The notes under the pieces were generated by a model. That model saw only the letters and a program-made list of their open reading frames with translations. It was not told the origin of the DNA and did not search any database. Shown here piece after piece: positions 2,751 to 34,764 of a DNA stretch of 64,000 bases; the first letter of the stretch is position 1, and every line of letters begins with the position of its first letter. The stretch is from Octopus vulgaris. Taxonomy: Eukaryota. The stretch covers positions 66,154,001 to 66,218,000 of the forward strand of contig OX597822.1 of assembly GCA_951406725.2 (NCBI GenBank). The letters are read 5' to 3'. Both the position numbers and the translations under genes were made by a program.

Positions 2751-3139
2751 TATCAATATATGTCAGTTCTAAGAATGTATGTCAGTATTTCACACTGATG
2801 TAGGGTAAATTCGACCGAAAAGAAATGTAGCACGTCGTTGAGTAAGAGGATGGAGGGAGTGAACGAGAGAGAGGTTATGTGGCTGCCTTTAACAGAATAC
2901 TCTTTGCAGACAAAACATTATGACGAGCTGTCTGGACGTATTCTTTATCCGCCTCTTTTCCTCTACCCGCAGTTGGCCTATGTACGTTTAAGTTCACTGG
3001 TATCCATCATGAATGTAAGTTAACATATATATATATATGTATATATATATATATATATATATATATATATATATATATATATATATATATATATATATAT
3101 ATATATATATACTTTATTTTAAGCAGCAGAAAATTCAAC

Positions 3140-3187
3140 AAAATCTGTTACTCTGAGTTTCTCGTTGCCGTTCATCAGACAGTTTTT
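3140..3187 (-). ncRNA. Minimal type I hammerhead ribozyme (inverted copy)
   Basis: Reverse complement of the motif at 4610-4657. Confidence 0.75.
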
Positions 3188-4609
3188 GCTAGAATGGAAC
3201 CGATATATCAATTCAATCTAGACTCTTACAAACGCTACACCTTTAAAAAGAAATGGACTTGTTTGATTGGCCCTTTAGAAAAAAAAACGGTCAATCTTCG
3301 AGCGATAAACAAAAAGGTCAAAAATATATGTATATATATATATATATAAAATGCTTATAAAAAATTATAAAATCCGAGAAAAAACCTTACATTGAATAAA
3401 ATACATATTGAAATTAATGAAGAAAGTTTAAATTAATTCATAGGAATTAAACCTGTTATAAATATTACACTGCAATACATATTTTTATTAAAATGTGCAT
3501 ATATATATATCAACATACACAAACAAGATGCGCGCCAACGCCATACATATACAGACGTATGAATATAAATCTAAATATAAACATAAATGCATGTGTACAT
3601 ATATTCACGCAAAACCATCTCGCACGCAAGTTAAAAATCATGTATGTAGCGATTCTCATATACTGAGTAAGGGGGGGGGGGACGAAAGAAAGGAAGAGAG
3701 AGAAAAAGGAACGAAGGAGGGGTGGGGAAAAAACGAAATAAGAAAAAATTATGTATATAATCTGTGTAACGGCGTTATTGGCATATACGGAGACAAGTAT
3801 ACAAACAAGTTCGTATGGATACATACATACAGTCGTGTATATGTGTGCTTAAGCACAAACATACTCTCACTTACACATACACAGATACGCATGCTTACAA
3901 ATACATATCCTCGGCTATACACATACTTACATCAACATTTTAATTTTGACAACGTTGCTTTTTTTAAAAACAACATTGCATTTTTTTTAAAAGAATGGGT
4001 GCATTAATAAAAATATATACGAAAGACATATAAAATAAAATATAACACCCTATTTTGGATCATTTATAAATAATCAAGGTAATATAAATAATCAAGGTAA
4101 TCCTATACAATACAGTAACCTGAAAACAAGGTCGAAGGTTTTTCCTGATGTATGTGTAGAAACATAAGACTTTGCTATACGGATTAAGATCCGCATAGCT
4201 TGGAAGACAAAATCCATTGTAGCGCTCATCGTTCAAGAGTCAAAATCAAAATTTCAAAAATCAAAAATACAAAATATATACTCTATCCATATGGTATATT
4301 TATATTCGACATTTTAAATTTAGCCGCGTGCCTACATAAGTTCATTAGCTCACTTCTTTGATTCAAAGAATTATTGTCTTTGAATAAGATGATGTATTTT
4401 ATTCAATGTAAGGTTTTTTCCTCGGATTTTATAATTTTTTATAAGCTTTTTTTATATATATATACATATATTTTTGACCTTTTTGTTTATCGCTCGAAGA
4501 TTGACCGTTTTTTTTTTTGTAAAGGGCCAATCAAACAAGTCCATTTCTTTTTAAAGGTGTAGCGTTTGTAAGAGTCTAGATTGAATTGATATATCGGTTC
4601 CATTCTAGC

Positions 4610-4657
4610 AAAAACTGTCTGATGAACGGCAACGAGAAACTCAGAGTAACAGATTTT
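4610..4657 (+). ncRNA. Minimal type I hammerhead ribozyme
   Basis: Stem I CTGT/ACAG, CTGATGA at 4619-4625, stem II CG-GCAA-CG, GAAA at 4636-4639, near-palindromic stem III ACTC-A-GAGT, GUA cleavage triplet at 4646-4648. Confidence 0.8.
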
Positions 4658-4954
4658 GTTGAATTTTCTGCTGCTTAAAATAAAGCATATTACTCTACCA
4701 TTGGTATTTGAGTACTCTTTTTTCCACCTTGTTTCACATTTATGTGTTTACTCCGGTATATATATATATATATATATATATATATATATATATATATATA
4801 TATATATATATATATATATATATATATATATATATATATATATATATATATATATAGGTAAGAAAGTTGGTATGTGAAAGCACGTGGTTGAATATATAGA
4901 GAATAGTAAAAAGGGAAAAAACTACAGAAGGCTTGTTTTAAAAGGTTAAAAATA

Positions 4955-5278
4955 TATATTTATGTCATAAAATGCTCGGGCTGCCACCAAGACTACGTGG
5001 GATCCACGGGACTATCACTCAGACGTAGATGCACACTGCATCGAAAACAGATTGCATTCCCAGAATACAGAATGATACCCTTTAGTGAGCACATTGAGAA
5101 ATGCGCAAAGCAACTTCTACCACAATTTTTAATCTTTCCATTCTACCAATGTGCTATCGGGACACCAGCACAAATTAGACTAAACAAGGAAACATTCTTC
5201 ATTGAAAAATACAAGCCCAAAGTTAACCATTCCAACATACTTATACAGAGAAACTCAATCCAAAAGAAAGGCAAATAA
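4955..5278 (+). pseudogene. Penelope-like retroelement GIY-YIG endonuclease C-terminal fragment
   Basis: In-frame translation [32 protein letters not shown]...SEHIEKC...FPFY...RLNKETFFIEKYKPKVN shows IY..CxxC..YVG, R..H, H and E...N, the PLE GIY-YIG signature. It is 5' truncated next to (TA)n. Confidence 0.85.
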
Positions 5279-5366
5279 TTTTAAGCGATTATCTCCCTTA
5301 CACCGGAAGAAATCACTTATTACCTCCCCTTATCTAGATTTCCGCTCAACGTAAACATAACAATTT

Positions 5367-31895: not shown

Positions 31896-32568
31896 ATATA
31901 TATATATATGTATATATATATATGTATATATATATATATATATATATATATATATATATATATGTGTGTATACATATAAATATATATATATATATATATA
32001 TATATATATATATATATATATATATATAAACACGGGGAATTACACGTGCAGACGCTTATCAAAACTCATGAGGCGGTTGAGTTTCAATCTTGTGGCCATT
32101 AAACTCATATATCAACTAAATTACTCGAAAGAATTACGAGACAATTACTACAGAATAATTAACCGCTCATATCGTATAACGACTGTGGGAGAAAATGTCA
32201 CCAACATACGTGAGATAGAAAATAGCCTTCCTTACATTAACAAGATATTCACGTATTGGAGTTGAAAATGATTTAGGGAACTCCTTGATTAGCTTAAATA
32301 AAAAAAAAAAAGTTGCACAAAGAATTTCTGCCAGGTAAAACGAGAAAATGGGTTTAATAGAATATAGTTTGTGAATATTATTACTATTATGTAATAGGGA
32401 TGAAGTGTGGCATAGTGGTTGGAGAATTGTAATCACCATCGCGAGATCGCGGTTTCAGTTCAGAAACCGGGTGGTGCTCTGTGTTCTTTAGTAAAATACT
32501 CCATCTTACGTTACTCTGCGATCATTTCGACATCTGACGCGTGGTACAGCGTTCAACTTTATAGGGTA

Positions 32569-32957
32569 CTAGCAGTATCGCCCGGCGTTGCTCGGGTTTG
32601 TAAGGGAAATAACTATATAAGCATTTTTAGAGATGTAAAGTATAATAGCCATCTCAATATGGCTAACCACAAAGGGGAGGTGTAGCTTTTTACGTTCTGA
32701 GATTTAATAATAAATTTTTAGAGAGTTACTTCCCTTATATATGCCAAAAATGTATTAAAAATGTGAAAAATTGATGATAATTTTTTTTTAAATCGTAGAC
32801 TCATCGTAGACGAGCGCTAATACCCAGAAGGGCTCGATATGAATCACGACTATAAGATACCCGGTTTTGGTTAAACTGCACCGCAAAATGTGGGAGTAGT
32901 TAGGAATCTAAATCGTAGGAGACAGACAGCACACAACCTCTCTTTTATATATAAAGA
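32569..32957 (-). mobile_element. Non-autonomous Helitron-like element
   Basis: On the minus strand it starts TC (TCTTTATATATAAAAG) and ends with a CCCG..CGGG hairpin followed by CTAG. It sits between host A and T with no TSD, and interrupts an older SINE remnant (32400-32568, resuming at 32958). Confidence 0.8.
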
Positions 32958-34114
32958 TGTCGTCGATTTGATGGAGTGTGTGAGCACATACATTTCGGAA
33001 CACATTCATCGCCCTCGACTTGATACTACATTGTTACTTAATTAAATGGCCATGTGGATTAGCAGAATGATTAAAGCGTAAGAAATCGCTGGAAGTAATT
33101 TTTGTAGTTATTTATGCCATGTCTACAAATTCCGTCGACGTCTACTTTGTATTTTTTCTCTTCACGATCGATAACATAATGTACCAGTCATGAGTTCAGA
33201 GGTTGAGGGCATCTGCTTATCCTCACCCTCATAACAGTTACACTTGTACGTTAATCGGAATGTAAAAGAACATTTTATGGTAACAACAATATTATTTATA
33301 ATGCAAATTAATCTTATTTCACATATGCATATACACAAGCTCAACATAAAGCTTCACACACACACACACACACACACACACACGTACGTACGTATGCATG
33401 TAGTGATGTATTTATGAATGTATATTAATGCACTATTATTAAAAGATTGAGTTTGCCCAAGTTGACGCTCGCACACGTACAAACCTACGTACATACACAG
33501 AATCGCACACACACACACGAATACAGACACACACACATACATATATATATGCGTGTGTTTGTGTGTGTGCGTATGTTTGCGCGGTCAGAGTTTCTAATTA
33601 CATATTTATGAGCGTGTATACGTGTAACTATTAAAGATAATTGATTTAATAATAATGATTCTATTAATTAACGTGATAAATTTCTTTGGCTTTCTTGACT
33701 TATTTTAATCTCTTAAACCGTTACTTAATATATTATGAAACAGAATCATCTGCACGCACTATTAAAAACACTATACATACATGCTAGTGTATATATATAT
33801 ATTATGCGTGTGTGCCTGTATGCATATGTGTATGTGTGTGTGTCCGTGTGTGTTTGTATATATATACACGCACACATGCGTATGCACCCTCATATGCATG
33901 CAGAAAAGCATGCGGTCTAGTACATGTGTATCTTTATGTAATTGTAGTAACACACAGCATTAAGACAATGGTTAATAACTCAAATATTCAATCATACACG
34001 CAAGCTCAATAGCATGAACACACACTTGCATGCATATATACACTTTACTTACACGTACATACAAACACACACGCACACACAGACACACACACATACAGAA
34101 GCGCATATATATAG

Positions 34115-34346
34115 TGTCTACTATAGCCTCGGGCCGACCAATAACTAGTGAGTGGATTTGGTAGACGGGAACTGAAAGAAGCCCGTCGTATATATGTATA
34201 TATCTATGTGTGTGTGTGTGTGTGTGTTTGTCCCCCAACATCGCTTGACAACTGATGGTGGTGTGTTTACGTCTCCGTAACTTAGCGGTTCGGCAAAATA
34301 ATCCGACAGAGTAAGTACTATACTTACAAAGTATAAGTCCTGTGGT
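34115..34346 (+). mobile_element. SINE family A, partial
   Basis: CTACTATAGCCTCGGGCCGACC..GTGAGTGGATTTGGTAGACGG..AACTTAGCGGTTCGGCAAAA. Confidence 0.85.
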
Positions 34347-34428
34347 CATATATATATGAATGTATATATATATATATATATATATATATATATATATATA
34401 TATATATATATATATATATATATACAAT

Positions 34429-34764
34429 TGCAGCGTGGAAGGTGTTTATAAGCCATTTAAGAATCACACAAAAGCCGTTCGATTCACTTCAACATTTAAG
34501 TCTAATTTGTCAAAATATTTTCGTCGCTAAAATCCGCGACCTGTTCACTGACAAAATTCCGTGCTGCATCTGCATTCTTGTCAGTGAACAGGTCGCGGAT
34601 TTTAGCGACGAAAATATTTTGACAAATTAAACTTAAATGTTGAAGTGAATCGAACGGCTTTTGTGTGTTTCTTAAATGGCTTATAAACACCTTCCACGCT
34701 GCATTGTTTTCGTTTCAGCACACGATCTCAGATCAAATTACTTGCTATGCGAGTACATCTCCGT
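34429..34764 (+). mobile_element. Fold-back PLE-like mini-element in (TA)n (126-bp arms, 23-bp spacer, ~61-nt tail)
   Basis: Arms at 34429-34554 and 34578-34703 are reverse complements with two mismatches. Tail at 34704-34764; (TA)n flanks. Confidence 0.8.
34578..34625 (+). ncRNA. Hammerhead-like motif with G3-C8 core variant (mirror copy on minus strand at 34507-34554)
   Basis: Stem I TTGTCA/TGACAA, core GTGAACA plus an extra G, stem II GTCGC/GCGAC, GAAA at 34610-34613, palindromic stem III AATATT, and U at position 17. Confidence 0.6.

Follow-up and report, generated by a model that had tools for sequence, protein, structure and literature searches.

What kind of element leaves behind a palindrome with a hammerhead ribozyme motif on each strand, embedded in a run of TA dinucleotides? 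The question is raised by three inserts in a 64-kb stretch of Octopus vulgaris DNA, which we refer to as the window; the inserts are called I1, I2 and I3, and all coordinates are those of the window. The original prediction, made from the letters alone, described three palindromic inserts in (TA)n with arms, spacers, tails and hammerhead motifs, all of which are present when their sizes are recomputed. It proposed that they are either self-primed, fold-back truncation products of Penelope-like elements (PLEs), or a non-coding, retrozyme-like class of mobile ribozymes. We conclude, with a probability of about 0.87, that the inserts are one-off, dead-on-arrival Penelope-like insertions, each made of two 5'-truncated 3' ends placed head-to-head in (TA)n. 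This reading assigns I1 to the Hydra clade, and probably I2, and leaves I3 unassigned. The idea of Penelope-like truncation products is thus supported, by the end of an open reading frame (ORF), by varied inversion joints and by a layout already published. The features of the inserts are as follows.

3040–3111: (TA)n target run to the left of I1
3112–3406, minus strand: I1, 3' end of the long copy, terminating at the tail-less site; the family is continuous across 3406/3407 (run X3, record 17)
3149–3178, minus strand: I1, long copy, core of the type I hammerhead, which has the sense of the ORF
3407–4282, minus strand: I1, long 3' untranslated region (UTR) of a high-copy family, not host flank (30/30 bins covered, many variant contigs, 4/4 runs)
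4283–4399, minus strand: I1, end of an ORF (~38 codons) for a Hydra-type GIY-YIG endonuclease, with its stop at 4285–4283
about 4391/4392: I1, 5' truncation and junction
4392–4685, plus strand: I1, arm of the short, tail-bearing copy
4619–4648, plus strand: I1, type I hammerhead core with A.A at the base of stem II
4686–4756, plus strand: I1, tail of 71 nucleotides (nt), with a hairpin motif at 4691–4715; family ends at 4690 and 4753
4757–4856: (TA)n target run to the right of I1
9190–9255, minus strand: I2, tail-less arm; hammerhead core 9251–9213
9256–9321, plus strand: I2, arm; hammerhead core 9260–9298; the centre of the palindrome lies inside the 5' strand of stem I
9322–9389, plus strand: I2, tail of 68 nt, with a hairpin motif at 9327–9348
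34429–34554, minus strand: I3, tail-less arm; G3:C8 hammerhead core 34548–34513
34555–34577: I3, spacer of 23 nt
34578–34703, plus strand: I3, arm; G3:C8 hammerhead core 34584–34619
34704–34765, plus strand: I3, tail of 62 nt, with a hairpin motif at 34739–34756

The arms of I1 are 295 and 294 nt long, differ by 2 substitutions and 7 gap columns, and have 985 nt between them. Those of I2 (66 nt each) match perfectly without a spacer, and meet at a self-complementary hexamer; those of I3 (126 nt) differ by 2 substitutions and have 23 nt between them. TA runs, the insertion target of the Hydra clade, flank all three inserts, and in all three the tail (71, 68 and 62 nt, respectively) occurs on one side only. 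No insert is directly repeated within the window.

The orientation of I1 follows from what lies between its arms. Relatives of the endonuclease were gathered from two neighbouring GIY-YIG fragments (4958; 51441–50999) and comprise 91 Neptune-type and 151 Hydra-type proteins, the latter so labelled on our own reading of their linker and their likeness to a published alignment (PMC8557442). At a threshold of E ≤ 1e-3, I1 is matched by 94 of the 151 Hydra-type proteins versus none of the 91 Neptune-type proteins, always on the minus strand, and a profile hidden Markov model of the Hydra-type relatives matches the minus strand of the spacer at 4399–4298 (E 8.5e-8), in a frame that extends to the stop at 4285–4283. 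Because the spacer carries this minus-strand ORF end, I1 is a long, tail-less copy that stands head-to-head with a short, tail-bearing copy. The long copy (minus strand) is cut inside the ORF at about 4391, and proceeds through ~1.1 kb of 3' UTR and the ribozyme to the tail-less end at 3112; the ORF end and the hammerhead core (3178–3149) are on the same strand, with the ribozyme near the 3' end. The short copy is the plus-strand piece, 4392–4756, with the tail. At the junction the protein alignment extends 8 nt into the arm, as microhomology would give. I1 had been described as non-coding, and its spacer as a segment followed by a direct arm; in fact it holds the end of an ORF, and the spacer, in minus-strand sense, is part of the tail-less arm. 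Captured host DNA and wholly non-coding DNA were both considered for the spacer and rejected, as the spacer is high-copy and the Hydra-type set revealed the ORF end; the Neptune-type set had found nothing there.

I1 is one of many. The stretch 3352–4756 was mapped on 4 of 24 listed public runs, all contigs, and matched 8038, 14035, 4974 and 703 contigs, with 30 of 30 bins covered in each. Because all bins are covered in every run, the whole stretch belongs to a high-copy family, and about 45% of the mapped contigs are less than 95% alike to it. Summed contig depth, which is not copy number, peaks at 4621–4756, reaching 0.8–2.8 million in the three larger runs versus at most 0.7 million elsewhere; cover from run X14, which is only guessed to be RNA, was not used. 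The results on loose ends rest on 24 of 876 rows, and 32 of 27,972 contig pieces were inspected. In the I1 family, the tail is bounded by two fixed 3' ends that pass into (TA)n: among the matches listed, loose ends turn to TA at 4690 in 30, 79 and 3 contigs (X1, X3 and X14, respectively), and at 4753 in 64 contigs of X3. At 4391, where I1 folds, other copies go on as ORF, because the loose ends of 5 X3 contigs, again among the matches listed, read CLLEKM on the minus strand; this fits the motif C..EK..I, which is present in 121 of the 151 Hydra-type proteins.

Thirteen joints are listed for the family. Six of them involve a switch of strand, and every one of the six comes from a single contig in a single run; one (3674/4678) was dropped from the count of inversions, its parts being in the same sense once the family is oriented. 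The five inversion joints are all different: 3657/4272, 4529/4579, 4611/4682, 4612/4677 and 4613/4687. The question of whether fold-back breakpoints are fixed or variable, posed along with the original prediction, is answered for the I1 family by these five joints of one contig each: they vary, and the insertions are independent truncations, not a replicating unit. Record 17 of run X3 had been considered a second copy of the fold-back junction, and became plain family continuity once the junction was moved to 4391/4392. The inner breakpoints of I2 (9255/9256) and I3 (34578), and three joints of the I1 family (4611–4613), lie within ~5 nt of the 5' strand of stem I. This hints that reverse transcription stalls there; the contig joints may also mirror the deepest cover.

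The hammerhead motifs themselves are well beyond chance. Our scan for type I hammerheads, in which any Watson–Crick pair was permitted at core position 3:8, predicts 8 in the window, versus a mean of 0.083 (maximum 1) in 60 local dinucleotide shuffles. Each insert accounts for two of them, a mirror pair with one copy per strand (6 of the 8), so that the predicted ribozyme motif on both strands is indeed there; any inverted copy gives one. The other two lie at 5374–5399 (U3:A8) and 35826–35905. A strict scan missed both I3 and the motif at 5374, which were recovered once 3:8 covariation was permitted. The core of I3 is a natural G3:C8 covariant (34584–34619, plus strand, and its mirror); in the literature examined, this pair figures only as an engineered rescue (PMC11167929). 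Stem I of I3 pairs over 7 bp in the minus copy and 6 bp in the plus copy, a weak hint that the spacer belongs to the tail-less copy. Rfam reported no hammerhead among 150 of 187 rows for the window, its matches being only microsatellite-driven microRNA, and none in 5 of 5 rows for the I1 ribozyme stretch. Upstream of the tails, the five ribozyme-bearing ends show no significant pairwise likeness (95–876 of 1000 shuffles), and a five-way alignment of them gave no information.

The tails are another matter. The inserts had been thought to have no mutual similarity and to possess unique tails, and yet the tails are related: all three hold a hairpin of the form TACTY, loop, GAGTAC, and those of I1 and I2 align with a score that is reached by only 4 of 5000 shuffles. 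The alignment of I2 and I3 is weaker (61 of 5000), and that of I1 and I3 is not significant (854 of 5000). A hairpin 6-mer is common to all three tails, and none of 5000 shuffled triples has any such 6-mer in common, the motif having been picked post hoc; alone, it is not rare across the window (3 seen versus a null mean of 0.9). Its spacing is identical in I1 and I2, where it starts 5 nt past the arm end and stops 41 nt before the TA run. Two of six published Hydra consensi (Hydra-2_Amil and Hydra-2_Ajap; PMC8557442) have, by eye, a GCTC...GAGCAC hairpin, which is a compensatory form of that in the window, 25–26 nt before their ends; of the other four, two are partly alike in the hairpin and two end earlier. 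With fixed spacing in two families, and this compensatory form in consensi from a coral and a sea cucumber, the tail hairpin is a candidate start-site signal, and we suggest tentatively that it is an RNA landmark that sets the two start sites. A metagenome scan for the hairpin next to a TA run found 35 loci, none with an upstream hammerhead and none with a match to the 91 Neptune-type proteins, the only set run; these loci were treated as chance matches.

How might such inserts form? A purified Penelope protein, of the Poseidon clade, cuts and extends both strands of DNA, prefers AT-rich DNA, and starts synthesis at two RNA sites that bound the tail; the ribozyme is dispensable for insertion (PMC11167929). 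We infer a similar course for the inserts, and rate the scheme as a whole at somewhat better than even. The GIY-YIG enzyme would nick both strands of a TA run, and each nick would prime reverse transcription at one of the two start sites bounding the tail. Both complementary DNAs (cDNAs) would stop early, and a microhomology of a few bases would link their 3' ends. The length of the arms would then be set by the distance that the tail-primed cDNA covered beyond the inner start site, and the hammerhead would be carried along passively, as part of the 3' end. Priming on two strands at two RNA sites, followed by joining, would probably give exactly the layout of I1.

Other origins have to be weighed against this. 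The arms are near-identical (0–2 substitutions) though copies of the family differ more, which argues for one template or source, and 'EN-mediated resolution' (EN, endonuclease) is how Craig et al. account for the tail (PMC8557442). Both points would fit self-priming: a single cDNA would double back to serve as its own template, and trimming by the endonuclease at the inner site would then remove the tail from one end; but two primings on one RNA also give near-identical arms. We consider self-priming unlikely, if worth keeping in mind. The short arm of I1 has a tail that the long copy lacks, and cannot be a simple copy of that cDNA. Plain self-priming, and with it the 'self-primed fold-back' of the original prediction, fails for I1 unless one end was trimmed, because a cDNA begun at the tail-less start cannot yield a tail-bearing arm, and this calls for an extra step. 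Furthermore, if the joints that connect 4611–4613 with 4677–4687 are head-to-head, there is almost no overlap between the pieces. A second alternative concerns I2 and I3, which might be a non-autonomous, retrozyme-like family, parasitic on Hydra-clade elements, whose transcripts re-insert as one unit that keeps its fold-back points. In its fullest form, I2 and I3 would be copied whole, the tail hairpin borrowing the Hydra-clade enzyme, and would be a head-to-head, TA-targeted counterpart of retrozymes. Both have inner breakpoints at the 5' strand of stem I, and non-autonomous Penelope derivatives are described; even so, we judge this origin, in either form, very improbable. For the homologous I1 family whole-unit copying is excluded, and a non-coding, retrozyme-like class does not agree with its ORF end, its variable inversion joints or the lack of head-to-tail repeats, which I2 and I3 lack as well. 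Three of the I1-family joints fall 2–4 nt before stem I, and a stall point there explains the coincidence without replication. In addition, when whole-insert transcripts are folded in silico, forming the ribozyme helices costs 63–81 kcal/mol (pairing probability 0.00), versus 0–5 kcal/mol for the direct copy alone; in a read-through transcript, the long hairpin is predicted to bury the hammerhead, which is not expected to act in the palindrome.

Fold-back artefacts of assembly or of reads, to which the perfect palindrome of I2 and the unbridged junction of I1 (among the 32 contig pieces inspected) would lend themselves, strike us as the least plausible origin of all. The tail-less ends lie at a site defined by the family (4685–4690), with the same 5-nt gap to the hairpin in I1 and I2. 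The tail is one-sided, the flanks are unmirrored, the arms of I1 and of I3 differ by substitutions, and the I1 family has further inversion joints in independent runs. The interpretation as one-off Penelope-like insertions has points to answer, too. Its support from public contigs concerns the I1 family, and I2 and I3 contain no coding sequence. The junction of I1 at 4391/4392 is not bridged among the 32 of 27,972 pieces, three of which end at 4387. The joint table does not distinguish head-to-head from tail-to-tail, five inversion joints are few, and one further joint, 4280/3549 (kind not given), is found in two runs (X3 and X4), which implies that some rearranged forms are shared. Families that share only ribozyme and tail add to the 3' peak of depth. 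In I3 the hairpin is separated from the arm end by 35 nt and from the TA run by 9 nt, unlike those of I1 and I2, and all of the tail hairpins fold weakly (z −1.5 to −2.1). The tails (62–71 nt) are longer than the 30–40 nt published, and the two-site result in vitro was obtained with a Poseidon-clade element rather than a Hydra one (PMC11167929). The joint 4280/3549 has 33 letters between its parts and, if these are on the same strand, is a shared deletion form of the I1-family 3' UTR.

Three neighbouring features in the window are Penelope-like or carry a hammerhead.

4958–5406, plus strand: 5'-truncated Neptune-type element, with a GIY-YIG end and a U3:A8 hammerhead (core 5374–5399)
35826–35905, plus strand: type I hammerhead with a long loop II
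50999–51441, minus strand: broken Hydra-type GIY-YIG region with a CxCX5C linker

Elements at 4955, 35061 and 51195 had been proposed to mobilise the inserts. They have no nucleotide match to them, and that at 4955 is Neptune-type where I1 is Hydra-type: the relatives of the 4958 fragment combine a reverse transcriptase with a C-terminal endonuclease, and have a CX4CxxC linker and a CCHH motif. The hammerhead of this element (5367–5406, plus strand) has a natural U3:A8 core, a 7-bp stem I and a palindromic stem III. Downstream of it, a tail-to-tail inverted repeat (5429–5500 and 5540–5624) surrounds (TA)17 at the 3' end of the Neptune-type copy, and the sides diverge beyond. Upstream of the Neptune-type ORF fragment, the 100 nt that separate it from the TA run (4857–4957) gave no convincing protein match, and could be an inverted, tail-only piece of the Neptune-type family. 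The hammerhead at 35826–35905 has a stem-loop II region of 61 nt and a TA run 43 nt downstream, and no ORF remnant was detected in 35061–35948. The hammerhead scan found none at 50999–51441. Elsewhere in the window, a dispersed repeat forms an inverted pair (44501–44669 and 44889–45057) that is 88% alike, with a third, partial copy between and no hammerhead in the scan. In 19279–21263 (plus strand), a 451-amino acid ORF has a weak zinc knuckle (Pfam E 0.26) and precedes an endonuclease-like frame; we take the two to be from a non-LTR (long terminal repeat) retrotransposon. Several related broken frames at 58300–60651 (minus strand), which have no Pfam support, are presumably the reverse-transcriptase ends of non-LTR retrotransposons, and a short frame at 55032–55304 (plus strand), with no Pfam hit, presumably the end of a mariner-type transposase.

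How do the inserts compare with known systems? In L1 twin priming, two target strands prime on one RNA and the resulting inversion is joined by microhomology. The inserts are unlike this in having a fixed inner start site, and in that their two pieces overlap and so form an inverted repeat. The features of the complex PLE insertion unit are closer: 5' truncation with an adjacent inverted, 5'-truncated copy, a tail on one end and, in the I1 family, two end sites are all found here. Craig et al. describe PLEs that are 5'-truncated, adjoin an inverted copy that is truncated as well, and bear a 30–40 bp tail at either end (PMC8557442), and Arkhipova et al. inverted pseudo-LTRs (pLTRs) with a one-sided tail (PMC3846280). 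The whole layout resembles this canonical unit of pLTR, inverted 5'-truncated copy and one-sided tail 'at either end' (PMC3846280; PMC8557442, Fig. 2; PMC8969392), but the inserts, being very short, keep little ORF or none, and target duplications are unreadable in (TA)n. Resemblance to the Hydra clade extends to the (TA)n target, to the Hydra-type C-terminal GIY-YIG endonuclease (in I1) and to the type I hammerhead in the 3' region. In the supplement of PMC8557442, (TA)n is given as the target for 26 of the 27 Hydra families, and one family is from Octopus; the annotation of Penelope-13_HM records an inverted copy, truncated at its 5' end, and one hammerhead per strand (PMC8557442). The CxCX5C linker, without a CCHH motif and in one ORF with a telomerase-like reverse transcriptase, marks the clade; the truncated copies in the inserts stop short of these parts. 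By eye, the ribozymes of Hydra-2_aMil and I1 have stem I and stem III arms in common, and the T.T at the base of stem II in I2 recurs in 14 of 26 Hydra rows in File S2 of that paper; the distance from stop to ribozyme in the I1 family, ~1.1 kb, is longer than in the six Hydra consensi listed. Four exact probes of 12–14 nt from the window ribozymes are absent from the supplement of that paper, and I1–I3 therefore look like unlisted families.

Pairs of minimal hammerheads on opposite strands, ~100–700 bp apart, were found in Schistosoma by Cervera and de la Pena, who ascribed them to truncated PLEs (PMC4209133). They resemble the inserts in having ribozymes on both strands, a palindromic stem III, a bulge after A9 and natural 3:8 covariation (U3:A8), and differ in host and clade. 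Non-LTR retrozymes are like the inserts in being short, in bearing type I hammerheads and in deriving from PLE termini. They consist, however, of head-to-tail repeats that yield circular RNA (PMC7229834; bioRxiv 10.64898/2026.07.22.740005), whereas the inserts are head-to-head, the joints of the I1 family are variable, and each insert has a single hammerhead per strand. Inverted truncated copies, one-sided tails, (TA)n targets and both-strand ribozymes are thus already published for PLEs, the Hydra clade included (PMC8557442; PMC4209133; PMC3846280), and the inserts are likely ordinary PLE leftovers rather than a new class of mobile ribozyme. The tail hairpin and the argument from orientation for two-strand priming are modest additions; neither was found in the literature searched, the scope of which excluded most subscription papers, older ones on Penelope structure among them. 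As a class of element the inserts are ordinary, and their value is mechanistic. The origin of the inverted ends and the one-sided tail of PLEs is still called unresolved in PMC8557442, and the I1 family, with its many short copies, two fixed ends and variable joints, makes the mechanism countable: one can score the arm on which the tail sits, the extent of overlap between the arms, and the bases that match at the joint.

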